Translations under genes and position numbers: made by a program
Source of the DNA: an uncultured Acidobacteriota bacterium
GTDB lineage: Bacteria > Acidobacteriota > Vicinamibacteria > Vicinamibacterales > 2-12-FULL-66-21
Assembly (NCBI GenBank): GCA_963847125.1
Contig: CAWJYM010000009.1
Coordinates: 1,106,658-1,170,657, forward strand
Length of the DNA: 64,000 bases
Direction of reading: 5' to 3'
In this document: one piece after another, positions 1 to 41,930 of the stretch
Position numbering within the stretch: position 1 is the stretch's first letter
Layout: every line of letters begins with the position of its first letter
The notes under the pieces: generated by a model
Databases searched by the model: none
What the model saw: only the letters and a program-made list of their open reading frames with translations
Told to the model about the DNA's origin: nothing

Positions 1-738
1 CCGGCGCGCCTCCGCCGGTACTTTGCGGCGCGATACGGCATGACGTTCCAGGCGTACTGCCGCGCGAGGCGGCTCGCGCGCGCGTTCGAGCGCATCCGCG
101 ACGGCGAGCCGCTCGACGATGCGGTGTTCGAGACGGGGTACGAGTCACACAGCGGCTTCCGCGAAGCGTTCCAGAAAGCCTTCGGCCAACCGCCCGGCCA
201 CTCAGCGGACGCCGAATGCATCCGCCTGTCGTGGATCGACACGCCGCTCGGAGCGATGATCGCCGGCGCAACCGATGCGGGTCTGTGCCTCCTCGAGTTC
301 ACAGATCGACGGATGCTCGAACAGGAGCTCGCGACGCTGCGGCGTCGATTCGGAGCAGCGCTTGCGCCGGCGGATCATGCGCACCTGAGGACGGTTCGAG
401 ACGAGCTCGCGGAGTACTTCGCCGGCACGCGCCGGACGTTCACCGTGCCCGTTGTCGCACCGGGCTCGCCGTTCGAGGAGCGTGTCTGGGAGCAGCTCCG
501 TCGAATCCCGTACGGCGAGACCCGTTCCTACGAGGACATCGCACGCGCCGTTTCCAGTCCCGCGGCGGTCCGCGCCGTCGGCCGCGCGAACGGCATGAAC
601 CGGTTGGCGATTGTCATCCCGTGCCATCGGGTTGTGAACAAGAGCGGCGAGCTCGGGGGTTACGGCGGCGGCCTCTGGCGCAAGCGGCGGCTGCTCCATA
701 TCGAGCGGGCCGCGCTCGTTCGCAGTGCGCACTCGTGA
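1..738 (+). CDS. ada: Ada-like protein: AraC-type HTH fused to an O6-alkylguanine-DNA alkyltransferase domain; 5' end lies outside the window
   Basis: Frame 1 is open from base 1 (PARLRRYFAARYGMTFQAYCRARRL, an AraC-type HTH helix). The C-terminal half carries the alkyltransferase active-site motif IVIPCHRVV. TGA at 736-738. Confidence 0.85.
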   Translation, partial: PARLRRYFAARYGMTFQAYCRARRLARAFERIRDGEPLDDAVFETGYESHSGFREAFQKAFGQPPGHSADAECIRLSWIDTPLGAMIAGATDAGLCLLEFTDRRMLEQELATLRRRFGAALAPADHAHLRTVRDELAEYFAGTRRTFTVPVVAPGSPFEERVWEQLRRIPYGETRSYEDIARAVSSPAAVRAVGRANGMNRLAIVIPCHRVVNKSGELGGYGGGLWRKRRLLHIERAALVRSAHS

Positions 739-793
739 CCCGTCGACTCGGGCGCGCGTCCCCCGGCTGGCTCCTACCGAACCTGTCAACGAA

Positions 794-809
794 CTGACGA
801 AGTCGTCAG
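794..809. repeat. Perfect inverted repeat CTGACGA-AG-TCGTCAG in the spacer between ada and the receiver gene
   Basis: Read directly. 7-bp arms with a 2-nt spacer, too short for an RNA hairpin loop, so a dimeric protein site is more likely than a terminator. Function unknown. Confidence 0.3.
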
Positions 810-1023
810 CATCTTGCCTGGCCGCGAGTTGGAGGGCGCGCGCCCGAATCCACGATTTATAGCTGAGCCGTACGAAGGCAACAGCACGTCTGGCCACGAC
901 TTCCGGCGGATCCGCCCCCCCGCCGCCGCGGTCCCACCCGGTCGAGCTTTCAGGCGCGTGCCTTGCAGCCCCTAAGTACCGATAAAGATAGAGGCGGAAC
1001 CCCCCGCCGTCACATCGGGCTGC

Positions 1024-4000
1024 ATGAAGATTCTCTATGTAGCAAACGACCGCCGCGCCGCGCAGCTCGTTGTCAACGCTCTCCGAGTTCACGCACCGGA
1101 CGCAACGCTGGCTTCGACCGAAAGCCTGCTGGACGCTGAACGCTGGGTTTCCGCCAACCGGGACCTCACCGCGCTCGTCGTCGATGCCGAGGTGCAGAAT
1201 CAGAGCGCCGCATCCTTCGTGCGGCACGTTCGCGGTCTCGGACTCACGGCACCGATCATCGTCGTCGCATCGGAGGCGACAGGGACGCCGAGTGCGGTGC
1301 TCAAAGCCGGAGCGGACGACTTCGTCACCGCCGGCGACTCCCTCTCTACCGACTTGCCGGACGTTGTCGGCCGGACGCTGAAGCGGCGTGCGGCGGCCCA
1401 GCCGTCCGGGCAAACGCTGCGGATCCTGTACGCCGGCGATGCCGCGCTCGCGCGGCAGAGCCTTGCGCACCCCGCGTGGTCGATCGAGATCGCCGAAGCC
1501 GTCCTGACGCCGGAAGAACCGTTTCAACCGATTCCGGCAGATTTTCCTGAGACAGGGGAACCGCTTCCCTTCGACATTCTTTTCGTCGAACACGACCACC
1601 CGGCGGTCGATGCGTTCTCGGTTCTCAAGCACATTGCCGACCGCGGGCTGCAGGTCCCCGTCATCGTCGTCGTCGAGTGGGATGACGCGCTCGGCCTCCC
1701 GGCGCTCAAGCTCGGCGCCGCGGACTGCGTGGTGAAGTCAGCCGAGGCGTTCCGCGCGCTGACCTACAGGCTCGATCGCCTCTTCGCCGTACAAGCCCAG
1801 GATGACCGCGCTCAGCGCGAGCTCGAAGCGGCGCGCCAGAGCTGGGAAGAAACCCGGACGAAGCTGGAGACGTCGGCGGCGGCAGAGGCCGCGGCCGCGG
1901 CCGAGCAGCGCGCGCGGCGAGAAACGGACCTGTCCGAAGCCAGCGCGGCGCGGCGCGCGCTCGAACGGCGGCTGGCCGACGTGGAAGCCGCTCTTCACGA
2001 GGCCACCGCAACCGCATCGACCGAGCTCGCGGCCGCCCGGCAGCAGTCGGCGCAGCTCGAGGCGGACCTGGAGGACCGGCTCGCGCAGGAGGTCGCCGCC
2101 CGCAAGACCGCGGAGCACAACCTGGCGCACGCGGACGCATTGTTCCGGGAAACCGAACAGCGGCGGGCCGCGGAAGCGTCATCCTCGGCCAATCTCCTCG
2201 GCCGGCGCGCCGCGGAGCTCACGGCCAGCCTCGCGCACGCCACCCGCTCGCGCGACACGATCATCCTGCAGCTCAGCGACGCCGAGTCGGCGCTCGAAGA
2301 ATCCCGGAAGGAGCGCGCCCGGCAGGAAGCCGAGCTCGCCGCAGCCGCGGCCGCGCGACAGGCGCTCGAACGCCGGCTCGCGGAGGCGGATGCGAACCTT
2401 CAGCAGGCAACCCGGCGCGCGGCGGCCGACCATGACGCGGGTGTGCAGCGGGAAGCGTCCGCGCGCCAGGCGGCCGAAGCACGCTTGGCGGATGCGGAAG
2501 CAGAGCGCGCGGACGATGAGCAACGGTACGCGTCGGAGCAGAGAGCCGCAACGAAGCAGCTGGCCGAGCGTCAGGCACAGCACGACGCGAGCCTCGCGCA
2601 AGCTGCGGCCGCCCGGGACGTTCTCGAACGGCGGCTGGGCGACCTCGAGGCGGAATTCGATCGATCGCGGCAGGATCGAGCGGCAGAGGCCGCCGCAGCA
2701 GCCGAGCAGCTGACGCGGCGCGAAGCGGATCTCGAGCAGCGGCTCGGTCGGGAAGTGTCCGCGCGCCAGGCGGCCGAAGCACGATTGGCGGATGCGGAAG
2801 CAGAGCGCGCGCACGATGAGCAACGGTACGCGTCGGAGCAGAGAGCCGCAACGAAGCAGCTCGCCGAGCGCCAGGCACAGCATGAAGCGAGCCTCGCGCA
2901 AGCTGCGGCCGCCCGGGACGCTCTCGAACGGCGGTTGAGCGACCTCGAGGCTGAACTCGATCGATCGCGGCAGGATCGGGCGGGAGAGGCCGCCGCAGCA
3001 GCCGAGCAGCTAACGCGGCGCGAAGCGGATCTCGAGCAGCGGCTCGGTCGGGAAGTGTCCGCGCGCCAGGCGGCCGAAGCACGATTGGCGGATGCGGAAG
3101 CAGAGCGCGCGCACGATGAGCAACGGTACGCGTCGGAGCAGAGAGCCGCAACGAAGCAGCTCGCCGAGCGCCAGGCACAGCATGAAGCGAGCCTCGCGCA
3201 GGCCGCGGCCGCCCGGGACGTTCTCGAACGGCGGTTGAGCGACGTCGAGGCGGAGCTCGATCAGTCGCGGCAGGATCGAGCGGCAGAGGGCGCCGCCGCA
3301 GCCGATCAGCTGACGCGGCGCGAAGCGGAGCTCGAGCGGCGGCTCGCTCAGGAAACCTCCACGCGCCAGGCGTTCGAAGCGCGGTTGGCAGAGGCGGAGA
3401 CGGAACGTGAGGCTGCCGACGAACGGCATGCGGCGGAGCGGACGACGGCGGCGGCGCAGCTTGCCGAGCGTCACGCGCAGTACAACACGGGCCTGGCCCA
3501 GGCCGCGGCCGCTCAGGACGTCCTCGAACGACGTCTGAACGACGCCGCGGCGGCGCTCGAACAGTCCCGAACGGATCGAGCCGCGGAGGCCATCTCCGCG
3601 GCCAAGCGGTTGACGCAGCGCGAAGCGGAGTTGTCGGAACTGCTCGCGCGGGAAGCGTCCGCGCGCCAGGCGGACCTCAGAGATGTCACGGCCACTCGGG
3701 CCGCGCTCGAACGCCGGCTGGCCGAGGCGGAGGACGAGCTTCAGCAGGCCGGCCAGCGACTGCTCGCGGAACGCGCGACCGTCGTCCAGCTCACTCAGCA
3801 TCACGCGCAGTACGACGCGACGCTGGCTCAGGCGGCCAGCGCCCGGGAAGCCCTCGAACAGCAGTTGAAAGATGCCGCCGCCGCGCTCGAACAGTCCAGA
3901 AAGGACCGAGCCGCCGAAGCTGCGGCGGCCGCAGAGCAGCTGACGGGGCGCGAACACGGAGCTGAAGGGACGGCTCGCACAGGAAGTCGCCGCCCGTCAG

Positions 4001-4488
4001 GAGCTCGAGGCGCTGCTGGCGGACGCGCACCTGGCGCGCGAGGAGGAGAGACAGAGGCTGACGTCCGAGTTGACGACTGCCGCGACGTACTTCTCCGAAC
4101 GCCAGGCCGAGCACGACGTCCACCTGGCGCAAGCGGCGGCGTCGCAGGCCGCGATGGAAAAGGAGCTCGTGGCCGCGGTCGACGCGGCGCGGCGCGACCA
4201 CGCTGCGGCAGCCGCCGCGGCGGCCGACGAGCTCGCACGGCGCGACGCGGAGCTCGCCACCGCCGCCGCAAGCCGCGACGCGTTGAAACGCCAGCTCGCC
4301 GATGCCGAGGCCGCGGCCAGGGCGGGCGACGAGCGCGCGGCGGAGGCCGTTTCCGCGCGCGACGCGGCCATGCAGCAGGCGGCGCTCCGCCAGGCGGAGC
4401 TCGAAGCGCAAGTCGCACAAGGACTCACCGACCGTCAGGCGATCGAGCTGGACCTCGCGAAAGCGCAGGCCACCCACCACGAGGTTGA
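1024..4488 (+). CDS. N-terminal part of a giant signalling protein: receiver domain, degenerate second receiver, then a long Ala/Glu/Arg/Gln coiled coil. The meaningful frame ends near 3955 (frameshift); the 3956-4488 tail is out-of-frame Arg/Gly/Pro sequence
   Basis: Receiver pattern MKILYVANDR ... ALVVDAEV ... IIVVAS ... LKAGADDFV. Second receiver-like block LRILYAGD ... ILFVEHDHP ... LKLGAADCVVK. A 100-aa periodic repeat runs from about 1800 onward, and its register continues in frame 2 from 3944. Confidence 0.8.
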   Translation: MKILYVANDRRAAQLVVNALRVHAPDATLASTESLLDAERWVSANRDLTALVVDAEVQNQSAASFVRHVRGLGLTAPIIVVASEATGTPSAVLKAGADDFVTAGDSLSTDLPDVVGRTLKRRAAAQPSGQTLRILYAGDAALARQSLAHPAWSIEIAEAVLTPEEPFQPIPADFPETGEPLPFDILFVEHDHPAVDAFSVLKHIADRGLQVPVIVVVEWDDALGLPALKLGAADCVVKSAEAFRALTYRLDRLFAVQAQDDRAQRELEAARQSWEETRTKLETSAAAEAAAAAEQRARRETDLSEASAARRALERRLADVEAALHEATATASTELAAARQQSAQLEADLEDRLAQEVAARKTAEHNLAHADALFRETEQRRAAEASSSANLLGRRAAELTASLAHATRSRDTIILQLSDAESALEESRKERARQEAELAAAAAARQALERRLAEADANLQQATRRAAADHDAGVQREASARQAAEARLADAEAERADDEQRYASEQRAATKQLAERQAQHDASLAQAAAARDVLERRLGDLEAEFDRSRQDRAAEAAAAAEQLTRREADLEQRLGREVSARQAAEARLADAEAERAHDEQRYASEQRAATKQLAERQAQHEASLAQAAAARDALERRLSDLEAELDRSRQDRAGEAAAAAEQLTRREADLEQRLGREVSARQAAEARLADAEAERAHDEQRYASEQRAATKQLAERQAQHEASLAQAAAARDVLERRLSDVEAELDQSRQDRAAEGAAAADQLTRREAELERRLAQETSTRQAFEARLAEAETEREAADERHAAERTTAAAQLAERHAQYNTGLAQAAAAQDVLERRLNDAAAALEQSRTDRAAEAISAAKRLTQREAELSELLAREASARQADLRDVTATRAALERRLAEAEDELQQAGQRLLAERATVVQLTQHHAQYDATLAQAASAREALEQQLKDAAAALEQSRKDRAAEAAAAAEQLTGREHGAEGTARTGSRRPSGARGAAGGRAPGARGGETEADVRVDDCRDVLLRTPGRARRPPGASGGVAGRDGKGARGRGRRGAARPRCGSRRGGRRARTARRGARHRRRKPRRVETPARRCRGRGQGGRRARGGGRFRARRGHAAGGAPPGGARSASRTRTHRPSGDRAGPRESAGHPPRG
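2440..3350 (+). repeat. Three near-identical 300-bp (100-codon) in-frame tandem repeats inside the coiled-coil region
   Basis: 2761-2880 and 3061-3180 are base-for-base identical. 2701-2760 versus 3001-3060 differ at one base. 2461-2580 differs at a few positions. More diverged copies of the same 100-aa unit extend from about 1800 to 5300. Confidence 0.95.
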
Positions 4489-6643
4489 ACGCCGACACGC
4501 GGCGGAGCTGGGCACGTCGGCGGCGCAGATCGCCGAGCTCGAAGCCGCGCGCAAATCGCTCCAGGACCGGCTCACCGAGACCGAAACCGGGATTCGGGCC
4601 ACACAGGAGCGCGCGGCGGCCGAACGCGCCGAGGCTGACCAACAGGCTGCGGCGCGGCAGGCGGAGCTCGAGGTGAGGCTCGCACAGGATGGAGCCGAAC
4701 GCCGCACGCTCCAGGCCAAGCTGGAGGAATCGGCCGCATCCGCCGATCTGCTCACGCAGCGGGGCGCGGAGCTCACGGCCAGCCTGGCGCACGCAGGCCG
4801 ACTGCGCGAGACGCTCGAGCAGCAAGTGAGCGACGCGGCGGCGGCGCTCGAAGAAGCCCAGCGGACCCGGACGTCCGACGCCGAGGCGTACCTCCGGCAG
4901 GCGGCCATCCGGAAAGCGGAATTCGAGGAGCGGCTTCGACAGGAGGCGACGGCGCGCGCTCGGTTCGAACGCGATCTCGCGGCGACGCGGCAGACCTCCG
5001 AGCAGGACAAACGACGCTTCGATGACGACATCGCCAGGGTGCAGGCCGACGCTCGCGATCGCGAGACGCGCCTCGAGGATCGGCTCGCTCGCGAGCGGGA
5101 CGACCACGCACGCGCGCTCGCCGAGGCTCAGGAGGTCGTCCGGCACCTGCAGGCCGGGCGCGACGCGCTTCAGCAGTCGCTCGGCGAAGCCGAGACGCAG
5201 CGGGAGCGCCTCGAGCGCGCTCGACTGGCGGGTCAGGCCGAGCTCGAGCGCGCCGCGCGCGAGCATGCCGCGGGGCGCGCGCGGCTCGAAGCGCTGGTGA
5301 CCGAGCGGGAATCGCAGCTGCGCGAGCAGTCGTCGGGCCATGCGGCCTCTCTGGCGGCCGCGAAGAAGCTGATCACTCAAAACGAGGCGCGGGTCGCCGC
5401 GCTCAACCAGGAGCTCGTGGCCGAGAAGAGCGGGCGCGCGGCGCTTCGCGCTCAGGCAGACGCGGTCCCGGCCCTGAAGACCCAGCTCGAAGAGAGCCAG
5501 GCCGAGAGCCGGCGACGGTTCGAGCAGAACCCGCACGGCATGTGCCGGTGCAACCGCGAGGGGGCGCTCACCCAGGCGAACCGCGCGCTGGCGAGCCTGC
5601 TCGGCTATCGAACGAGCGATGACTTGCGAAGGGTGAACGTCGCCACGGCGGTCTTCGAATCCGCAGACGACCTGCGATGGCTGATCGACCGCTGCCTGAG
5701 CACGGGCACGCCCGAGTCGGTCGAAACGACGTGGAAGAGAAAGGACGGAGACCGGTTGATCGTGAAGCTGCTGGCGGTCGCGGCGGCGCCAGACGCGATC
5801 GAAATCGTCGTGGAGGACCTCACGACCCGCCGCGGTCTCGAAGAACGGCTGCGCCAGGCTCAACGCATGGAGGCGGTCGGGCGGCTCGCGTCGGAAGTCG
5901 CGGTCACCTGCGACAACCTGCTCCGGGACGTCAGCCAGGACGGCGAACAGTGGCTCGCGACGATCGACGGCAACACGGCGCTCCGGCACCGGGCCGAGCA
6001 GCTGCTGGCCGAAGTGACCCGCGCCGGCCACTTCCTGCGGCAGCTTGCGGCGTACGGCCGGAAGCAGACGCGCGCGCTCGAGCCGGTCAACGTGACCACG
6101 GTGATGCGCGACATGGAGCCCGTCCTGAAGCGCGTGGCGGGCGACGACATCGAGCTGCTGCTGCCGAAGACCACGCGCCCGGTGAACGTCGACGTCGAAG
6201 CGGAGCGTGTCGAGCGGGTCCTGGTCAACGTGGCCAGCTACGCGCGCGAGCGGATGCCGTCAGGCGGCCGACTGAAGATCGAGCTCGCGTCGGTCGTCGT
6301 CGATGGGCGGTTCATCGCAAAACACCCCAACGTCCGGCCGGGCGCCCACGTCCTGATCACGGTCACCGAGGTGCGTGAGGCCGCGCGCCTCGCCCCGCCG
6401 GGCGCTGCACACAGCGAGCCGGCCGCGGCCGCCGTGAGCCCGGCGTCGGACAAACCTGGCGTCGATCTCGGGGCGCTCCTGAAGCTGATCGCCGACTGCG
6501 GCGGCCACCTGTGGATGACGGCGGAGCCTCCCGGGAACATGATCCTGAAGATCCACCTGCCGAAGCGGACCTCGGACGACCCTCGTCCGGTCGTGACGCG
6601 ATCCGAGCGGGGCGGGTCGATGTCCCGCTGGTTCGGTCACTGA
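4070..6643 (+). CDS. C-terminal part of the same giant protein: coiled coil, PAS-like block, DHp-like helix and HATPase_c-like domain with degenerate catalytic motifs. The frame is open from 3944; 4070 is only the first Met
   Basis: Frame-2 translation from 3953 (TELKGRLAQEVAARQELEALLADAH) continues the upstream repeat. NPHGMCRCNREGALTQANRALASLLGY looks PAS-like. The H-box region reads MEAVGRLASEVAVTCDNLL with no His. The N-box region reads ERVLVNVASYARERMPSGGRLKIEL with no Asn. Confidence 0.8.
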   Translation: MTTAATYFSERQAEHDVHLAQAAASQAAMEKELVAAVDAARRDHAAAAAAAADELARRDAELATAAASRDALKRQLADAEAAARAGDERAAEAVSARDAAMQQAALRQAELEAQVAQGLTDRQAIELDLAKAQATHHEVERRHAAELGTSAAQIAELEAARKSLQDRLTETETGIRATQERAAAERAEADQQAAARQAELEVRLAQDGAERRTLQAKLEESAASADLLTQRGAELTASLAHAGRLRETLEQQVSDAAAALEEAQRTRTSDAEAYLRQAAIRKAEFEERLRQEATARARFERDLAATRQTSEQDKRRFDDDIARVQADARDRETRLEDRLARERDDHARALAEAQEVVRHLQAGRDALQQSLGEAETQRERLERARLAGQAELERAAREHAAGRARLEALVTERESQLREQSSGHAASLAAAKKLITQNEARVAALNQELVAEKSGRAALRAQADAVPALKTQLEESQAESRRRFEQNPHGMCRCNREGALTQANRALASLLGYRTSDDLRRVNVATAVFESADDLRWLIDRCLSTGTPESVETTWKRKDGDRLIVKLLAVAAAPDAIEIVVEDLTTRRGLEERLRQAQRMEAVGRLASEVAVTCDNLLRDVSQDGEQWLATIDGNTALRHRAEQLLAEVTRAGHFLRQLAAYGRKQTRALEPVNVTTVMRDMEPVLKRVAGDDIELLLPKTTRPVNVDVEAERVERVLVNVASYARERMPSGGRLKIELASVVVDGRFIAKHPNVRPGAHVLITVTEVREAARLAPPGAAHSEPAAAAVSPASDKPGVDLGALLKLIADCGGHLWMTAEPPGNMILKIHLPKRTSDDPRPVVTRSERGGSMSRWFGH

Positions 6644-6663
6644 GCCTGCCGCGCCGAAGCCGC

Positions 6664-6714
6664 GAACCCTTACGAACGGCCACGAACCCTCGAGAACCTC
6701 AAGAACCCAAGAAC
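6664..6714 (+). repeat. Six GAAC direct repeats phased at 10,10,10,9,8 bp, between the giant gene and the NarX-like kinase gene
   Basis: GAAC at 6664, 6674, 6684, 6694, 6703 and 6711 (cgcGAACccttacGAACggccacGAACcctcgaGAACctcaaGAACccaaGAACgc). Helical phasing suggests a protein-binding array or bent DNA. Function not shown. Confidence 0.35.
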
Positions 6715-6797
6715 GCTTCAGGAAACTCCGGTTACCGCGCGGTCGCGTAGGCGTCACCGGCATCGGCGGGCGCTATGATGAGCGTTCCGAGCGACTC

Positions 6798-8147
6798 GTG
6801 ACGCGCGCGAAAATCCCATCTCCAACCGCCGCCCTGGCCATCGGCCTCCTGCTGACGCTCGGCACCGTCGTCGTCTATTGGTGGTACATCTCCGGTCACA
6901 TCGCCGGGCTCCGGCGGCTCCAGACGGAGCTGACCGATCGCAACCGCAGAGACTCCCTGCAGCTGCTTCGCATACAGAACGATCTGAACCAGATCGCGCT
7001 TGCGATGCGCGACATGCTGGATACAGACCAGCCCTATCCGCTCCTCGCCTGGACCGCGCAGTTCGATCGGATACGAGTGGATCTGGCAGACGCGCTCGCG
7101 CGCGAGGGCGAGGTCGCCGTCGCGCGCCGGACGCCGGAGCAGAGCGAATACCTCGCGACCTCGACGAAGCAGTTCTGGGAGGCTGTCGATCGCATGTTCG
7201 ACCTGGCGAAGGCGGGGCAGGAGCAGGAGGCGCGGTCGCAGATTCGCGTCACGCTGCAGGCCAGGCAGGCGGCCTTGAGCACGACGGTGGCGCGGCTCCT
7301 CGTGCAGAACAACGAGAGCGAGGAGCAGACCGCGCAGCAGGTCCAGAACATCTACCGTGACGTCCAGCGCCAGGCGACCTGGCTCCTCACGGCCACGCTT
7401 GCCGCGATTGCGGCCACGGGCCTGTATCTGATCCGGTCGAACCGGAAGCTGTTCGCGCAGCTCTCGGCGCTGTCCGACGAGCGGCGCGACCTGGCGCAGG
7501 CGCTGATCGCGACGCGCGAATCGACGCTGCGCGAGATCGCGCGTGAGCTGCACGACGAGTTCGGGCAGATCCTGACGGCGATCGGATCGATGCTCGGCCG
7601 GGCGGGCAGACAGGCGCCCGAAGGGTCGCCGCTCCGGGCGGATCTGCGCGAGATCAACGAGATTGCGCAGGCGGCGCTCGACAACGTCCGCGGTCTCTCG
7701 CAGACGCTCCACCCATCGATTCTGGAAGAGCTGGGACTCGAGAGTACGATTCAGTGGTATCTATCGACGGCCGTCAAGCAGCTCGGCCTCGAGGTGACGT
7801 ACGAGAAGACCGGCACCGCCGAGATCGATCACACGACGGGAATCCACGTGTATCGCGTGCTTCAGGAAGCCCTCAGCAACGTGGCGCGGCATGCCGGGAC
7901 GAAGCGCGTGTGGGTAAGGCTTCGCTGCGACGCGGCCGGCCTGCAGCTCGAGGTCGAGGACCACGGGAAGGGCCTCGATCCCGATCTGCCGCGCGGCCTC
8001 GGTCTCGTCGCGATGCGCGAGCGGATAGCGTTGCTCAAAGGCAGCCTCGAGTTCCTGCGTCCCTTCGACGACACGCAGGGCAAGCCGGCAGAGCGAGGCA
8101 CGCTCGTGCGCGTCCGCGTTCCCCTTCCTGCTCCGGCAACGACATGA
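6798..8147 (+). CDS. Membrane sensor histidine kinase, NarX/DesK/LiaS type (HisKA_3 + HATPase_c)
   Basis: GTG start. N-terminal TM helix (AALAIGLLLTLGTVVVYWWYI). H-box ELHDEFGQILTAIG. ATPase motifs HVYRVLQEALSNVARHA and VEDHGKGL ... GLGLVAMRERI. The stop overlaps the regulator start (ATGA at 8144-8147). Confidence 0.9.
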   Translation: MTRAKIPSPTAALAIGLLLTLGTVVVYWWYISGHIAGLRRLQTELTDRNRRDSLQLLRIQNDLNQIALAMRDMLDTDQPYPLLAWTAQFDRIRVDLADALAREGEVAVARRTPEQSEYLATSTKQFWEAVDRMFDLAKAGQEQEARSQIRVTLQARQAALSTTVARLLVQNNESEEQTAQQVQNIYRDVQRQATWLLTATLAAIAATGLYLIRSNRKLFAQLSALSDERRDLAQALIATRESTLREIARELHDEFGQILTAIGSMLGRAGRQAPEGSPLRADLREINEIAQAALDNVRGLSQTLHPSILEELGLESTIQWYLSTAVKQLGLEVTYEKTGTAEIDHTTGIHVYRVLQEALSNVARHAGTKRVWVRLRCDAAGLQLEVEDHGKGLDPDLPRGLGLVAMRERIALLKGSLEFLRPFDDTQGKPAERGTLVRVRVPLPAPATT

Positions 8148-11815: not shown

Positions 11816-12428
11816 GGCCTGCCCGCGATTGATAAAGTCGGATCAGCCATTTGGGAGCTCTCAGCTCACGGAGTTTGGTCACAGCCCGATCGTGGAACGC
11901 CTCGCGCGTCCACACGACTGGATCGGACTGAAGCTGGGCGTGTGCTTGCTCAATGAGCGCCTGGCCGTCCGGTAACCGCGACGCGAACGCGATCTCGGCC
12001 TTGAAGCACACGCGCTCGATACGCACGCGCATTTCGGGTTCATAGCCAAAGCCCGCACGGAACAGCCGGGCATGTGTCGCCTCGTGGACGATGATTGAGG
12101 CGACGTGAACGGCGGAGACCTCCTGTTTTAGCAGATGGCTCCTATCAAGAACGCAGAGCTGGGCCCAGTAGTGATACTCGGCGTGGTTGCCTCCAGTCTC
12201 CGTTATCCACAGGCCGCGTAGATCGCGTTTGAGACGTGCAAACCGAGCCGGATTGTACTGGTCAATCAGCCGGACGGCGTCACACACCTTGTCAAATAGC
12301 ATCCGGCGCTCGCAGGCGTCAGAGAGTAGACAGCGGACCTCTATCCCGCAACATCGTCGGCGCGCCGATAACGCAAAGAGAAAACGTGTAGTCCAGATGC
12401 GTAGCCTCGAGCGAAGCGTCTGTGGCAT
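11790..12428 (-). CDS. Hypothetical protein with an HExxH zinc-metallopeptidase-like motif
   Basis: 212-aa ORF in a visibly lower-G+C stretch. Motif ASIIVHEATHARLF. No family recognised from sequence alone. Confidence 0.5.
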   Translation of the reverse strand: MPQTLRSRLRIWTTRFLFALSARRRCCGIEVRCLLSDACERRMLFDKVCDAVRLIDQYNPARFARLKRDLRGLWITETGGNHAEYHYWAQLCVLDRSHLLKQEVSAVHVASIIVHEATHARLFRAGFGYEPEMRVRIERVCFKAEIAFASRLPDGQALIEQAHAQLQSDPVVWTREAFHDRAVTKLRELRAPKWLIRLYQSRAGREGDGKVS

Positions 12429-14439: not shown

Positions 14440-14530
14440 TTCCTTCCTCTGTGCCTCTGTGTCTCTGTGTCTCATCGTCCCCGCCTTTCTCTGCGTCTCC
14501 TCGTCCTCTGTGTCTCCGCCGCAAGCCCGT
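14440..14530. repeat. CTCTGTG/CACAGAG-rich dispersed repeat, also present inverted at 41760-41875
   Basis: 14461-14499 is the reverse complement of 41772-41810 with one mismatch in 39 nt (hand comparison). It overlaps the 3' end of the YjbR-like ORF. Confidence 0.8.
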
Positions 14531-30152: not shown

Positions 30153-30419
30153 TCATCTGCCGCTGTGAGATCGAAGGTTGAACCAGAAAACAAACGTCAG
30201 CTTGTTACCGCCGCGGAACTGCAACTCCAGACTGCCGCTTCCACGTTTCACGCGGAGAACCAGCCCATCGCACAGACCTATGTCGGTCCATAGTCGACGC
30301 GGGTCGTCCGGCGGGCTCGGTCCGAGCGCCGCCAGATGTGCTTCGTACGCCGCGTTCATTTGATTGGCCTCCACATCCGGTAGATCGCCCCGGAGCCACG
30401 CTTTCGTAAAGAACTTCAG
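30153..30419 (-). pseudogene. Truncated paralogue of the 41231-41753 gene (DUF4085-like N-terminus); no ATG, and divergent/short after ~60 aa
   Basis: LKFFTKAWLRGDLPDVEANQMNAAYEAHLAALGPSPPDDPRRLWTDIGLCDGLVLRVKRGSGSLELQFRGGN aligns to the second copy. Similarity is lost after GGN and a stop follows 15 codons later. Confidence 0.6.
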
Positions 30420-30539
30420 AGGACTTCCAGGTGGGGACGCTCAATCGTAGGAAAAGCGTCACCTCAACCCCCGCACGGAGTTCCGACGGCGAGAACCGGA
30501 TATCGACCGACATCGTGCGACGGGCCCTCACCTCGACGG

Positions 30540-31094
30540 TGACGTCGCGCGCCAACCGACCACCTCGCGGGCGGCTAGTGGGCGTCACCACTTGTTTGAC
30601 ACACTGGCCTTCAGCGCCACGATGTCGACCGCTTGCTCCGCGACGGATGTGTTTTCGGGCGACGGTTCTTCTTCGAGCTGCCGCAGCAGCTTGGCTTGAT
30701 CGAGCTCACCTGGTAGTGCTCGCCCAGCCAGCGGACCACCTCGCGGCGGCCGGTGGGCGTCACCACTTTTTTGACACCACCGCTTTCAGCGCCACGATGT
30801 CAAGGGCCTGCTCCGCGACGATGTGCTTCAAGCGGCGGTTTTCTTCCTCGAGCTGCTGCAGCCGCTTGGCTTCATCGAGCTGCAGACCGCCGAACTTGGG
30901 CTTCCACTCGTAATAGGTGTTCTTGTGGACCTCGTAGGCGCGGCACAGATCCTCGACCTTCCGGCCGGCTTCCCCTTCGCGGAGAATCTTGAGGATTTGC
31001 TCCTCATGAATCGACTCCGTCGCATCGTCCCTCCTCGGGAGAGAGTGCGGCGCAGTCACAGTCTAGGCTGGGTCAGTTTTGAGGGGGCAGGTCA
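30540..31094 (-). mobile_element. IS3-family insertion-sequence remnant: left inverted repeat, orfA, frameshift site, first ~20 codons of orfB, plus a tandem ~185-bp partial duplication; no DDE domain
   Basis: The terminal sequence TGACCTGCCCCCTCAAAACTGACC (minus strand) ends at 31094. Slippery heptamer A-AAA-AAG at 30766-30772. 30558-30740 is a degraded repeat of 30742-30900. Confidence 0.8.
30760..31059 (-). CDS. IS3-family transposase OrfA (HTH/leucine-zipper protein)
   Basis: EEQILKILREGEAGRKVEDLCRAYEVHKNTYYEWKPKFGGLQLDEAKRLQQLEEENRRLKHIVAEQALDIVALKAVVSKKW is the classic IS3/IS407-group OrfA, ending at the frameshift window. Confidence 0.9.
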   Translation of the reverse strand: MTAPHSLPRRDDATESIHEEQILKILREGEAGRKVEDLCRAYEVHKNTYYEWKPKFGGLQLDEAKRLQQLEEENRRLKHIVAEQALDIVALKAVVSKKW

Positions 31095-31273: not shown

Positions 31274-31675
31274 CTACTTGACGGGGAAGCTTACGGTCGA
31301 GACGAGCCAAATCAACCCACCGAGAACGACGTAGATAATCAGAATCACCCCCCACGTAGCGCTCGTCGCCCCCTCCCCTGACTGAGTAAGAAGGACATAG
31401 GTCAGAAAGACGAGCCAGCACAGGTTGTAGGCGATCAAGACGTACCGTCCCCAGTTTCGGCGGCGGAGGAGAGCGTAGCCAATGACAAAGGAGGGCACGA
31501 CGGCGACGATTCTGAACGCCCACCAGGCCAGGGAGTCTGAATTGGATTCCGGGAGAGTGGCCCGAGGGGAGACCAACATAACAAGCAGCACCAGAATTGG
31601 AAAAGCCGAGCCGAACACGGCAACACCAATGTAGCCGATGCCAACAAGCACAAGTAAGCTCGAGTTGTTTTTCAT
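31274..31675 (-). CDS. Four-TM small membrane protein; candidate immunity protein for the upstream Rhs-type toxin cassette
   Basis: 133-aa ORF in a low-G+C patch, starting 25 nt after the toxin stop. Four hydrophobic helices (LLVLVGIGYIGVAVFGSAFPILVLLVML, FRIVAVVPSFVIGYALL, VLIAYNLCWLVFLTYVLL, WGVILIIYVVLGGLIWLV). The immunity role is inferred from position only. Confidence 0.45.
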   Translation of the reverse strand: MKNNSSLLVLVGIGYIGVAVFGSAFPILVLLVMLVSPRATLPESNSDSLAWWAFRIVAVVPSFVIGYALLRRRNWGRYVLIAYNLCWLVFLTYVLLTQSGEGATSATWGVILIIYVVLGGLIWLVSTVSFPVK

Positions 31676-31700
31676 ATCGGGCCTGTCTGCATCCTGATCA

Positions 31701-32135
31701 TTAGTAGCCCCTCGTGCAAAGAGTTAAACAACTATAGTGACCCACCCATTCATGACACAGCGCCGTGATAAAGTAAGGATCTTTCCTGCCGACCCACTCA
31801 ACGCAGAGACGATCCATATTCTGCAGGCAATCTCGAATACAACTGTTTATAGGTCCACAACCCATAAAATTGCACACGGATGGCACAAGCCGACAATAGT
31901 AGCCCCTTGAAAAGAAGTTCTGCACTTCGCGGCACCTCGTTTGATAATAGGTACAGTCGGGGCATAAACCGAGCGGATCGGTTAACGTTGTGACGCGATT
32001 GTTTACGTACGAATAGGAGTTTGCGTACTGGGGATCACGCTGAACGTACTGCCCGAGTGGAGGGGTGTCAATGACGCGCGGCCGACGATAACGATCGCGC
32101 TCCGCTGATTCTCGCCGGCGAGCCAGGGCGCGGAT
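31701..32135 (-). pseudogene. Orphan (start-less) Rhs/YD-repeat C-terminal cassette: end of the Rhs core (DPLGL) followed by an 87-aa, 12-cysteine candidate toxin domain
   Basis: The open frame from the TAA at 32136-32138 reads ...RDRYRRPRVIDTPPLGQYVQRDPQYANSYSYVNNRVTTLTDPLGL (DPLGL at 31965-31979), then CPDCTYYQTRC ... LCTRGY and a stop. No ATG/GTG/TTG occurs before GTG 31925, which lies inside the toxin domain. Confidence 0.55.
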
Positions 32136-32157
32136 TTACGGTATCCTGCAGCCCTCG

Positions 32158-33852
32158 ATGGAATCGACGGGAACGGACCGACGCGTCGAAGGGCGCACGG
32201 TCCGTTCGGCGATCGGCGTCTACGGCGAGCGTGCCCCGCTCGTCATGGTGGTCCTTGGATTTTCTGCAGGCCTGCCCCACTACCTGATCTTCGACACGCT
32301 CTCGGCCTGGCTGCGCTCGGCCGGCCTCTCGCTCGAAGTCATCGGTTTCTTCAGCCTCGTCACTCTGGTCTCGACGTTCAAGTTCCTGTGGGCGCCGTTC
32401 ATCGACCGGGCGCGCGTGCCGATCCTCACTGCCTGGCTCGGGCATCGCCGCTCGTGGATGCTGGTCTGCCAGGCCCTAATCATGCTCGGCTTGTGGCTGG
32501 TCGCCGGCTCCGATCCGTCGCACAGCCTGGGCAGGATCGCCATCTTCGCCGTCCTCGTCGGCTTCTCGGCAGCCACCCAGGACATCGCGGTCGACGCGTG
32601 GCGCATCGAAGCGACGGAGACGACGAAGCAGGGCGCCATGGCGGCCGCCTATCAGTGGGGCTATCGCGTCGCGATCATTATCTCGGGCGCAGTGCCGCTG
32701 CTCCTCGCAAATGCCTACGGCTGGAATTTCTCGTACGCCGTGATGGCCGCGCTGATGCTCGTCGGGGTCCTCGGCGTACTGGCGGCGCCGCGCGAGCAGC
32801 GCCATGCCATCCGTCCGATCCAGACCGAAGGCATACGGCCCGCTCCGGTGCTCGAGGCGCTCGAATGGATCGCGCGGCTCGCGATCCTGGGGGCGGGCGC
32901 GCTCGTGCTTGGATCGGGTCTTGCGGCCAATGCCGGTGTGCTCGCGCGGGTGCTCGGCGCGATCGGCGCAGACCGCGCGCGCGACGCGGTCGTCGCCGCG
33001 TGGTCGTCGGACGCGCGGGTGTGGGTGCACCTGGCCGCGGTCGCCGCCGGGTTCGCCGTGATCGTCGTCGCGGCGCTCCCCCTCCCCGGCGCCCGCACGC
33101 GTCCGGGCGTGTATCTGTCGTCGGCGCTCGCCGATCCGCTCCGCGATTTTTTCACGCGCTACCGCACCACCGGCGCGCTGATCCTCGCGCTCATCTGCCT
33201 GTACCGCGTCCCGGACTTTGTGCTGACCATCATGAACCCGTTCTATCTCGACCTCGGCTACACCCTGGTCGAGATCGCCGAGGTGCGGAAGATCTTCGGC
33301 GTCGTGATGAGCATGTTCGGCGTCTTCGTGGGAGGCGTGCTGGTGGCGCGCTACGGGCTCATGCGCTCACTGATGATTGGCGCGTTCGCCGGACCACTGA
33401 GCAATCTGCTGTTCGTCTGGCTGGCGCTGCAGGAGCACCACGTCATGGCGCTGTTCGCCGCGATCGGCCTGGACAACATCGCGGGCGGCATCGCCGGGAC
33501 ATGCCTGATCGCGTACATGTCGAGCCTGACATCGGTCGGCTTCACGGCTACGCAGTACGCGCTCTTCTCCTCTCTCTACGCGATACCGGGCCGGCTGATC
33601 GCGTCTCAATCGGGACGCATCGTCGAAGCCGTGGCGCGCAGCGCCGACGCGGGCGGCGTGCTCGCAGGTCTGAAAGCCCTCGTCGCGAGCGAGGCGCCGC
33701 AGAACTTCGCCGCCGCCGTCGAGCGATCGGGCGTCACGCCCGCGGCGCTGGGCGCCGGCTACATCGTGTTCTTCGTGTACACGGCGCTGCTCGGGGTTGC
33801 CTCGGTGATCCTCTCGATCGCCGTGTGGCGCCGCGTCAATACTGAGGGCTGA
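32158..33852 (+). CDS. ampG: AmpG-family muropeptide permease (MFS)
   Basis: LVMVVLGFSAGLPHYLIFDTLSAWLRSAGLSLEVIGFFSLVTLVSTFKFLWAPFIDR and 12-14 TM segments are typical of AmpG. Confidence 0.88.
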   Translation: MESTGTDRRVEGRTVRSAIGVYGERAPLVMVVLGFSAGLPHYLIFDTLSAWLRSAGLSLEVIGFFSLVTLVSTFKFLWAPFIDRARVPILTAWLGHRRSWMLVCQALIMLGLWLVAGSDPSHSLGRIAIFAVLVGFSAATQDIAVDAWRIEATETTKQGAMAAAYQWGYRVAIIISGAVPLLLANAYGWNFSYAVMAALMLVGVLGVLAAPREQRHAIRPIQTEGIRPAPVLEALEWIARLAILGAGALVLGSGLAANAGVLARVLGAIGADRARDAVVAAWSSDARVWVHLAAVAAGFAVIVVAALPLPGARTRPGVYLSSALADPLRDFFTRYRTTGALILALICLYRVPDFVLTIMNPFYLDLGYTLVEIAEVRKIFGVVMSMFGVFVGGVLVARYGLMRSLMIGAFAGPLSNLLFVWLALQEHHVMALFAAIGLDNIAGGIAGTCLIAYMSSLTSVGFTATQYALFSSLYAIPGRLIASQSGRIVEAVARSADAGGVLAGLKALVASEAPQNFAAAVERSGVTPAALGAGYIVFFVYTALLGVASVILSIAVWRRVNTEG

Positions 33853-41230: not shown

Positions 41231-41753
41231 CTAGGCTTCGCCGTTGTCGAAGCGTCCACCCGCGGGAGTGACGTTCAGTTTGAACGCTGCGAAGCGGACG
41301 GACACTTCGTAATATTGCCTGCCTGACCTTCGGGCTCGTCGCGGCCTTTCGACGATGAACAATAACCGGTGGATCCAGATCCCGTCGGAGGCGTCGAACT
41401 CGTCGTACAGGAGTTCGATGTCACGTCGGCCCGCTGCACCAGTCAAGAACCGTTCATCCGGATCGGATAGCAGCAACGCTCGCCGTACCAGAGCGTAGCG
41501 GTAATGTAGCCGGAGCTGATTGTTACCGGCGCGAAACTGCACCTCCAGACTGCCGCTTCCACGTTCCACCCGGAGAACTAGCGCGTCGTGCAGGTCTACG
41601 TCGGTCCATAGTCGACGCGCGTCGTCCGGGAGGCTCGGTCCGAGCGCCGCCAGATGTGCTTCGTACGCTGCGTGCACTTGATTCGGCTTCGGCCGCCGGT
41701 AGGTCGCCCTGGAGCCACGCTATCGTAAAGAACTTCAACGGTCCTCCAAACAT
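41231..41753 (-). pseudogene. DUF4085-like protein, full-length paralogue carrying a +1 frameshift about 25 codons from the start
   Basis: MFGGPLKFFTIAWLQGDLPAAEAES in one frame, then VHAAYEAHLAALGPSLPDDARRLWTDVDLHDALVLRVERGSGSLEVQFRAGNN in the next. Comparison with 30153-30419 shows one extra base (gccGaatcaa versus gccaatcaa). Confidence 0.6.
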
Positions 41754-41797
41754 GAAGACACGGAGGGACGTGAGACACAGAGAAAGGCGGGGACGAT

Positions 41798-41869
41798 GAG
41801 ACACAGAGACGCAGAGCCACACAGGTAACCCAAAGATGTGAAAAGGCCTTCTCTGTGTCTCTGTGTCTC
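41798..41869. repeat. Long hairpin within the CACAGAG repeat element: 19-bp arms (one mismatch), 34-nt loop
   Basis: gagacacagagacgcagag (41798-41816) pairs with ctctgtgtctctgtgtctc (41851-41869). The adjacent 41772-41810 is shared with 14461-14499. Confidence 0.8.
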
Positions 41870-41930
41870 GGTGCCTCTTCGTCCCCGATCTTCTCAGCGT
41901 GCTCAATCAGCTCTGCGTGCTCAGCGCGCT

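Follow-up and report, generated by a model that had tools for sequence, protein, structure and literature searches.

A probable orphan Rhs toxin cassette with a cysteine-rich tip and a four-helix membrane partner in an Acidobacteriota genome

We analysed 64,000 nucleotides (64 kb, hereafter the window) of contig CAWJYM010000009.1 from an uncultured Acidobacteriota bacterium (assembly GCA_963847125.1, positions 1,106,658 to 1,170,657), in which a minus-strand frame without a start codon (31701..32135) precedes the gene of a small membrane protein (31274..31675). The locus is best read, at a probability of about 0.8, as an orphan rhs-CT/rhsI module, i.e., a horizontally acquired and displaced C-terminal toxin cassette of the Rhs/YD type together with its cognate immunity gene. 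That the two genes constitute a toxin/immunity module of Rhs origin is very probable, and it is likely that this module is a silent orphan. An earlier reading of the same DNA from its letters alone (the original prediction) had spoken of a displaced or silent cassette, which agrees with our finding that the frame has no start codon and that the 64 kb contain no rhs gene. All the elements that it listed are present where it placed them, and its interpretation is largely supported.

The start-less frame comprises 144 codons plus a stop, with its upstream boundary at a stop in 32136–32138 and its own stop at 31701–31703. It reads ...RDRYRRPRVIDTPPLGQYVQRDPQYANSYSYVNNRVTTLTDPLGL, followed by 87 amino acids with 12 cysteines; the N-terminal portion is IRALARRRESAERDRYRRPRVIDTPPLGQYVQRDPQYANSYSYVNNRVTTLTDPLGL, and the 87-residue continuation runs CPDCTYYQTRC...CLTLCTRGY. 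The original prediction had described the frame as having no start codon, and there is indeed no in-frame ATG, GTG, or TTG before a GTG at 31925. Because initiation at this GTG would cost the toxin domain its first helix and three conserved cysteines, the frame is left without a usable start.

The last 36 codons before the toxin domain (31965..32072, minus strand) form a remnant of the Rhs-associated core that ends in DPLGL, the core/toxin junction. The Rhs_assc_core profile TIGR03696 matches frame residues 25–57 (profile positions 40–76 of 76) with E=2.2e-4 and 21.7 bits, which is below the curated cut-off of 32.5 bits since only the domain tail (36 residues) remains, and pairwise BLASTP against the core end of the RHS protein P0005 gives 18/36 identities (50%, E=1e-11). 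In P0005, as well as in the Rhs protein of locus L009 described below, TIGR03696 is matched over its full length with a score that passes the cut-off, and the domain stops exactly at DP(F/L)GL. The match to a Rhs core end that had been claimed for this segment thus stands on the TIGR03696 tail and the identity to P0005, with one correction. The PxxxxDPxGL motif that precedes the variable tip of Rhs polymorphic toxins is present here as NNRVTTLTDPLGL, where an R replaces the P; the closest relatives likewise lack this proline. A profile search of 31980–32135, which had been put forward as a check on the claim, returned the TIGR03696 match. By these similarities, the segment is a genuine Rhs core end. 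The Rhs-derived sequence begins at residue 22, corresponding to window position 32072. Upstream of this point, the head of the frame (32073..32135, minus strand) has no detectable Rhs similarity, the BLASTP alignment with P0005 beginning at residue 22, and is high in G+C; it is probably native intergenic DNA ahead of a divergent major facilitator superfamily (MFS) transporter gene.

A sharp boundary in base composition lies near 32072, at the same place as the start of the Rhs-derived sequence. The G+C content is 48.3% in the toxin, 51.9% in the core remnant, and 56.1% in the membrane protein gene, as compared with 68.2% in 32073–32157 and a window average of 66.8%, so that the lower G+C noted earlier relative to the flanks is borne out. 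All 261-nt segments below 52% G+C in the 64 kb start between 31511 and 31841, making the cassette the lowest-G+C spot of the window. Judged by this composition, and by the sharing with other loci, which is limited to the cassette, a foreign origin by horizontal acquisition is suggested.

Translation of 31704..31964 (minus strand) gives the 87-residue, 12-cysteine domain directly after DPLGL, just as originally described. A word-indexed protein search with this domain found no match. An exhaustive HMMER search of 1.84 billion representative proteins returned 14 matches at E<=1e-3, of which three reach E<=1e-10, with the top match at E=1.6e-20 and 51% identity. One of the 14, P0016 (E=6e-4, 24% identity), is a repetitive protein and was discarded as spurious, leaving 13 clusters among the 1.84 billion representatives as credible matches to the toxin domain. 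In each remaining match examined, the domain is C-terminal and follows a Rhs core-end motif (DPLGL or a variant, e.g., DPTG or DPRG), sometimes after a short linker; the core motif was not seen in P0013, a 127-aa fragment. The carrier proteins hold RHS_repeat, TEN_YD-shell, or Rhs_assc_core domains, and P0005, P0007, P0011, P0014, and P0015 are RHS/YD-shell fragments with the toxin domain as their terminus. Scans of genomes and metagenomes with a 6-sequence alignment, GTDB representative genomes included, added 12 loci with a full toxin domain. The suggestion that the domain is a Rhs toxin tip is therefore well founded, in that it recurs C-terminally in RHS/YD proteins, including a full-length Rhs of 2275 aa, and the window toxin belongs to a rare family of C-terminal ends of RHS proteins.

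In an alignment of 19 family sequences (A3), with residues counted from the D of DPLGL, 15 positions are invariant: C9, Y11, Y12, C16, Y27, C29, C36, C47, R49, C51, L52, D56, H81, C84, and C88. All 15 are kept in the window toxin, which is intact, with no frameshift and no stop. AlphaFold2, run on the toxin-family alignment, produced a model with a predicted local distance difference test score (pLDDT) of 85.9 and a predicted template-modelling score (pTM) of 0.75, containing helices at 10–18, 22–38, 43–63, and 71–89. These results bear on the simplest alternative, that the segment is a chance open frame in AT-richer DNA. Such a frame could lack a start codon and go unmatched in a word-indexed search, as is the case here, but would hardly give an HMMER match at E=1.6e-20, 15 invariant residues over 19 sequences, a confident structure model, and the conserved synteny described below; its probability is negligible.

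Each toxin helix carries one cysteine pair, with CX6C spacing in helices 1 and 2 and CX3C spacing in helices 3 and 4. From this spacing, two disulfide staples per helical hairpin (helices 1–2 and helices 3–4) may be proposed. Four extra cysteines (C6, C41, C60, and C77) are found in the clade of the window toxin (P0005, L022), whose complement would suffice for up to six disulfides within 87 residues. Because of their i, i+4, i+7 spacing, R49, Q53, and D56 line one face of helix 3 and, taken with H81 and three tyrosines, resemble a binding or catalytic site. No hydrophobic segment is present in the domain, whose maximum 19-residue Kyte-Doolittle mean is 0.92 and whose grand average of hydropathy is -0.15. 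A pore-forming toxin was considered and rejected, since the maximum of 0.92 is well under the approximately 1.6 needed for a bilayer-spanning segment.

The idea of a possibly new toxin family gains in weight from the database comparisons. Searches of Pfam and NCBIfam with the toxin and 14 family members returned no family, with DUF6966 appearing only below threshold. The sequence profile found only chance matches in the PDB, the best of which (E=0.3; complement factor H, amylase) are clearly spurious, and a Foldseek comparison of the model with the PDB and BFVD gave a best E of about 5 and no structural neighbour. DUF6966 (PF22294) was examined as a candidate family and rejected: it matches 2/14 family members, with a best E of 0.0045, and not the window sequence. 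The match of P0011 reaches 14.9 bits over 26/53 profile positions, as compared with a gathering threshold of 27 bits. No mention of DUF6966 was found in the literature searched.

The second gene of the cassette (31274..31675, minus strand) is intact and encodes a protein of 133 aa with four hydrophobic helices, hereafter the four-transmembrane (4-TM) protein, our candidate for the cognate immunity protein. As predicted, 25 nt (31676–31700) separate the toxin stop from its ATG at 31675. In having its own ATG next to a toxin frame that has none, it conforms to what is seen in orphan modules. A structure was predicted from a shallow alignment, and as the model is of low confidence (pLDDT 54), only the helix boundaries (5–35, 43–70, 75–98, and 105–129) were taken from it. 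In the family alignment (A4), a signature ...AY....RRRxWGRY..I.YN... marks the junction between helices 2 and 3. On average, loop 2 has a net charge of +3.3 and the C-terminus one of +1.4, whereas loops 1 and 3 are close to neutral; from this distribution, the positive-inside rule predicts an N-in/C-in protein whose two outer loops are short and variable.

Close homologues of the 4-TM protein, with 82–91% identity, are found in 3 metagenome contigs. A homologous gene directly follows the toxin in the window, L004, L009 (twice), L024, L025/L027, L026, and L031, so that a 4-TM protein of the window family is the next gene in 8/13 distinct loci. In L022, only the last ~26 codons of such a gene are left, and in L005 (77 aa, two helices), L008 (163 aa), L030 (156 aa), and L044 (172 aa) the toxin is followed by unrelated polytopic membrane proteins. 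Thus, a membrane protein follows each intact toxin that has sequence downstream. The immunity position that had been assigned to the 4-TM gene is upheld by this synteny and by the co-divergence of the two genes, as expected for the small downstream reading frame of a toxin/immunity pair. Neither Pfam nor NCBIfam contained a family for the 4-TM protein and 7 homologues, and no PDB match was obtained; the searches of these two family libraries with toxin and partner produced only sub-threshold noise (DUF6966, DUF2569, a holin family, MerC, DUF2127, and MASE3).

It might be asked whether the 4-TM protein has another function, being holin-like, assisting export, or simply travelling with the toxin as a small membrane protein of no relation to it. 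The weak, sub-threshold Pfam matches to a holin family (E=0.032) and DUF2569 (E=0.029) would fit such a role, as would the persistence of the 4-TM gene without toxin in L001 and L003. Persistence of this kind is, however, described as typical of orphan immunity genes (PMC3150448; PMC10539506), and PHROGs contained no match to either the toxin or the 4-TM protein. Furthermore, the gene occupies the canonical immunity position, 6–60 nt past the toxin stop in most loci; its divergence is faster than that of the toxin, with 31% identity for the L004 partner (E=7e-14) as against 51% for the toxin; and additional toxin-less copies exist in the orphan array of L009. Position, faster divergence, and toxin-less copies are hallmarks of immunity genes, and any of these other functions is highly improbable. 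We infer that the 4-TM protein is the immunity protein of the toxin.

The most informative relative is L009, a complete system in a metagenome-assembled genome from the Chloroflexota (DATGMD010000023). The product of its rhs gene is 2275 aa long. Its N-terminus, judged by eye, resembles a signal peptide, and it contains DUF6531, ten RHS_repeat stretches, and an entire Rhs_assc_core up to DPLGL, after which the toxin domain follows; no PAAR or VgrG domain was found in this protein. The rhs gene is followed after 6 nt by a 139-aa 4-TM gene, an orphan toxin frame, a 135-aa 4-TM gene, and a 127-aa 4-TM gene that is a third copy without toxin. The orphan frame, which carries a second variant of the toxin, has 42 codons upstream of the cysteine motif (...FAYANDAPMTIRDPLGL), and neither a complete core nor a start codon. 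By analogy, the arrangement corresponds to the classical layout of Rhs and contact-dependent growth inhibition (CDI) systems, with a main toxin, an orphan module, and an orphan immunity gene. The window cassette has exactly the construction of the L009 orphan, but stands alone. Among the other loci, L005 from a soil metagenome (1–7472; also L006 and L007) contains consecutive RHS fragments of 336, 580, 176, and 327 aa with small reading frames between them and a RHS/TIG gene after the toxin, as if an rhs array had been broken or rearranged there.

Orphan rhs-CT/rhsI and cdiA-CT/cdiI modules are known to lack initiation codons, to keep some of the core, to have expressible immunity genes, and to lie often amid insertion sequence (IS) elements (PMC3150448). 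The enterobacterial examples from Dickeya dadantii 3937, Yersinia pseudotuberculosis, and E. coli EC93 (Poole et al. 2011, PMC3150448) share with the window cassette a short start-less core leading to DPxGL, a variable tip whose relatives terminate full-length Rhs proteins of other organisms (here the C-terminus of the L009 Rhs), a small immunity gene with its own start, and the association with IS elements. Unlike these modules, the window cassette does not sit in an array behind a full-length rhs gene. When the window was searched by tblastn with the 2275-aa Rhs protein, the sole match was at 31716–32033, and accordingly no other rhs sequence is present within the 64 kb, in keeping with the original prediction; a nearby full-length gene sharing the core-end sequence, another feature of orphan modules, is thus absent from the window. 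The host also differs, being a high-GC bacterium and not an enterobacterium, as do the toxin and immunity families, which are unclassified, and the immunity protein, which is an integral membrane protein and not a soluble one.

The history of the cassette can be followed in its closest relatives. Loci L001–L003 are 91–94% identical to the window at the nucleotide level over 31295–31688 and share nothing else of note with it. Their 4-TM gene lies between a CarboxypepD_reg-like gene or a 175–189-aa gene on one side and urease genes on the other. Homology to L002 reaches as far as 31735, the toxin there being reduced to its final 35 nt (CITLCTRGY); in L001 and L003, the toxin is wholly lost and the 4-TM gene persists. 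The 4-TM gene itself has a 1-nt deletion in L001, another in L002, and a TTG start in L003, and the pairwise ratio of nonsynonymous to synonymous substitution rates (dN/dS) among the four copies is 0.42–1.07. Decay in the relatives together with these ratios indicates that selection on the cassette is weak in this lineage. An identical 133-aa 4-TM protein is encoded on a short Logan contig (run ERR12036784), with 613 nt between it and the divergent gene of an AraC-type regulator; this gap is large enough for a toxin remnant, and the contig represents a fourth genomic context. The differing surroundings in L001–L003 and the Logan contig suggest that the module has moved or been rearranged repeatedly, and that it is mostly decaying. 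Among the copies of this lineage seen, both genes are intact only in the window. Proteins of 175–189 aa and 224 aa, for which no Pfam match was found, flank the 4-TM gene in L001 (9413–9982 and 10483–11157) and L003 (2–304), and may be further orphan immunity genes in an island between the CarboxypepD_reg-like gene and the urease operon.

These observations also admit a different history, in which a full-length rhs gene once stood in the window and a deletion, possibly IS-mediated, left its last 123 codons behind as a decaying pseudogene, with at most the immunity gene of any use. The neighbourhood is full of fragments, among them an IS3 orfA without orfB, a 158-nt duplication, a 31-aa piece of a CarboxypepD_reg-like protein, and an 86% identical partial copy of another gene. 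In the relatives, loss of the toxin advances from the 5′ end and the 4-TM gene has acquired frameshifts, and dN/dS values of 0.4–1.1 would suit a pseudogene. Decay in place is, on the other hand, difficult to reconcile with an 87-aa toxin that has no frameshift or stop and retains all 15 invariant residues. The G+C break near 32072 is only ~85 nt from the start of the divergent, housekeeping-type MFS gene, which leaves neither room for nor trace of an rhs gene of ~6 kb. Moreover, the unrelated surroundings of the cassette in L001–L003 and the Logan contig suggest that the short module itself moved. An imported orphan and a wreck formed in place yield an identical present-day object; we consider the latter history unlikely, and an imported orphan module remains the preferred reading.

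In the mechanism that we propose for this orphan module, the toxin would not be made alone, and would be expressed only if the core-end sequence served to recombine it onto a full-length rhs gene at another place in the genome. In the meantime, the immunity gene with its own ATG would protect against neighbours that fire this toxin. Once expressed, the tip would be released at DPLGL by the Rhs aspartyl autoprotease, the cleavage by which is established for Rhs proteins generally, and would fold into a four-helix bundle. Helices 1 and 2 would be held together by two disulfides (CX6C/CX6C), as would helices 3 and 4 (CX3C/CX3C), with two further pairs in the window clade. Since disulfide folding needs an oxidising compartment, the toxin should be active beyond the cytoplasm, either in the periplasm or on the outer side of the cytoplasmic membrane. 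The conserved polar stripe (Y11, Y12, Y27, R49, Q53, D56, and H81) would suit an enzyme or a specific binder of a membrane-associated target and not a pore-former, and the N-in/C-in 4-TM protein would intercept the toxin at the membrane by way of its two short, variable outer loops.

For action outside the cytoplasm that depends on disulfides, as the original prediction had suggested, we estimate the odds as slightly better than even. The case is strengthened by the downstream partners, all of which are membrane proteins, the unrelated ones too, and by the conserved cysteines forming CX6C/CX6C and CX3C/CX3C pairs on adjacent helices. A precedent for periplasmic oxidative folding is found in Mariano et al. 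2018 (PMC5792426), in the form of type VI secretion system (T6SS) effectors that need DsbA of the target cell. Twin-CX3C and twin-CX9C hairpins, such as those of the small Tim proteins and the CHCH domain, likewise place cysteine pairs of fixed spacing on adjacent antiparallel helices, which suggests inter-helix staples. The toxin has no sequence or fold relationship to these proteins, and differs from them in combining CX6C and CX3C pairs within one four-helix domain. Enzymatic attack on a lipid-linked or membrane substrate, as a more specific mode of action, appears rather doubtful.

Several observations weigh against the interpretation given above. The eight conserved cysteines and one histidine could bind metal instead of forming disulfides. 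RRRxWGRY, which is the best-conserved motif of the immunity family, is located on the predicted cytoplasmic side and not in the outer loops. A sigma-70-like -35/-10 pair (GTGTCA-16-TATAGT, 9/12 matches; 31731..31758, minus strand) within the 3′ end of the toxin, ~55 nt before the 4-TM start, is a possible but weak promoter for the immunity gene, and is not significant, with one such site found and 0.6 expected from shuffles. The absence of a full-length rhs gene from the 64-kb window leaves the recombination partner unproven, and the module may be a dead end. Finally, the toxin loss, the 4-TM frameshifts, and the relaxed dN/dS described above for L001–L003 show a cassette in decay in close relatives.

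The first two of these points can be combined into an alternative mechanism, in which the cysteines bind Zn or an Fe-S cluster and the toxin acts from the cytoplasmic side, e.g., after T6SS delivery, on or at the inner face of the membrane. Eight invariant cysteines and an invariant histidine would provide the ligands, CX3C pairs can bind Zn as in the small Tim proteins, and the predicted cytoplasmic position of RRRxWGRY would place the immunity motif on the appropriate side. The CX6C thiols are, however, two helical turns apart, which fits inter-helix staples and not a single metal site. Furthermore, the sole full-length carrier, the Chloroflexota protein of L009, with its signal-peptide-like N-terminus and neither PAAR nor VgrG, points to export, and all partners are membrane proteins, with no soluble one among them. 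Cytoplasmic action with bound metal is therefore distinctly unlikely, and the extracytoplasmic, disulfide-stapled toxin is retained in the following comparisons.

Membrane-acting toxins with integral-membrane immunity proteins include the pore-forming colicins, with 3–4-TM immunity proteins of the Cai/Cei type, CdiA-CT(EC93) with CdiI, and the P. aeruginosa Rhs effector Tse5, whose C-terminal toxin (Tse5-CT) is paired with Tsi5. As in these systems, the partner of the window toxin is a small polytopic inner-membrane protein, with four helices in an N-in/C-in arrangement as in Cai, and by analogy an immunity protein of this type implies that neutralisation would take place at or in the membrane. 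The toxins of this group insert into the bilayer by means of long hydrophobic helical hairpins or glycine zippers. The window toxin, in contrast, has no hydrophobic segment, is rich in cysteine, and carries a conserved polar set of R, Q, D, H, and Y residues.

A second group to be compared is the Lipocones, whose four-helix toxin tips, some of them RHS-borne, are predicted to act on lipid head groups outside the cytoplasm (PMC12419801). Their immunity proteins are all membrane proteins or lipoproteins, one class having a 4-TM core, and their active-site pattern consists of a His in helix 2, a Glu in helix 3, and an Asp in helix 4 that line the aperture of the cone (PMC12419801). A small four-helix core as polymorphic-toxin tip and a membrane-type immunity protein are shared with the window module. 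The corresponding residues in the window toxin are instead a tyrosine (Y27) in helix 2, R49..Q53..D56 in helix 3, and H81 in helix 4, and the prokaryotic Lipocones are not described as cysteine-stapled. Neither the PDB profile search nor the Foldseek comparison with the PDB returned TelC, SAA, or Wnt for the toxin. Membership in the Lipocone/Min-Wnt group, which had been raised by the link to 4-TM immunity, was rejected, as neither the His/Glu/Asp pattern of helices 2–4 nor profile or fold similarity was found; the resemblance is a lead and not membership. A tentative further reading, which we regard as possible at somewhat less than even odds, is that the toxin represents an undescribed fold family: a four-helix bundle with 4–6 disulfides, active after oxidative folding outside the cytoplasm, with an R-Q-D-H-Tyr site directed against a membrane-embedded or lipid-linked target, and countered by the RRRxWGRY 4-TM family. 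If so, it could be a cysteine-stapled and strongly diverged offshoot of the four-helix toxins that attack lipid head groups, or an independent invention.

Upstream of the cassette, the divergent MFS transporter gene occupies 32158–33852 on the plus strand. On the other side is a decayed element of the IS3/IS407 type (30551..31094, minus strand), with its left end, TGACCTGCCCCC, at 31094. The orfA (30760–31059, minus strand; HTH_Tnp_1, E=2e-16) confirms the adjacent IS3 remnant that had been reported; it is frameshifted near codon 7, and tblastn of the remnant identified orfA only, with no orfB and no rve domain. A partial direct duplication of 158 nt (83% identity) between 30727–30881 and 30551–30706 covers the 3′ part of orfA. 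An IS3/IS407-type left end, TGACCTGC[C/T]CCC..., is located just 3′ of the immunity gene in three settings that differ in other respects: the window, L003 (755–798), where a solo IS end of 44 nt is the same as that of the window, and L004 (6233–6300), where a complete IS3 with a similar end begins 2 nt after the immunity stop. This may reflect coincidence, target preference, or IS-assisted movement of the cassette. On the 3′ side of the remnant, 30472–30564 (minus strand) encodes an isolated 31-aa stretch with 58% identity to the C-terminus of the CarboxypepD_reg-like protein of L002. A 229-nt segment at 30202–30429 is 86% identical to 41520–41748, the 5′ part of a 148-aa reading frame (41231–41677, minus strand) 11 kb away, for which no Pfam, NCBIfam, or PHROG match was found and of which a truncated copy thus lies beside the IS remnant. 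A short repeat (~50–130 nt, 74–92% identity, partly inverted) occurs at 41776–41904 and 14447–14497 and in L001 at 11860–11974, and may be a small dispersed repeat family of the lineage. Rfam and tRNA scans of the window were empty.

The genetic arrangement of the cassette is ordinary for polymorphic-toxin biology: orphan Rhs cassettes are a well-understood route by which toxin tips are stored and swapped, and what is new here is the content of the toxin and immunity genes. Both families are rare, unannotated, and structurally unmatched in the libraries searched, and a cysteine-rich, putatively stapled, and non-hydrophobic Rhs tip with a consistent membrane partner is an uncommon combination. 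The locus also shows that toxin/immunity modules can be found far from any rhs gene, amid IS debris, and that they decay on the toxin side first. Should the toxin act on the envelope, the few Rhs toxins that work outside the cytoplasm would be joined by one with a new target or mechanism, which would also provide a compact scaffold of 87 residues that is easily tested.

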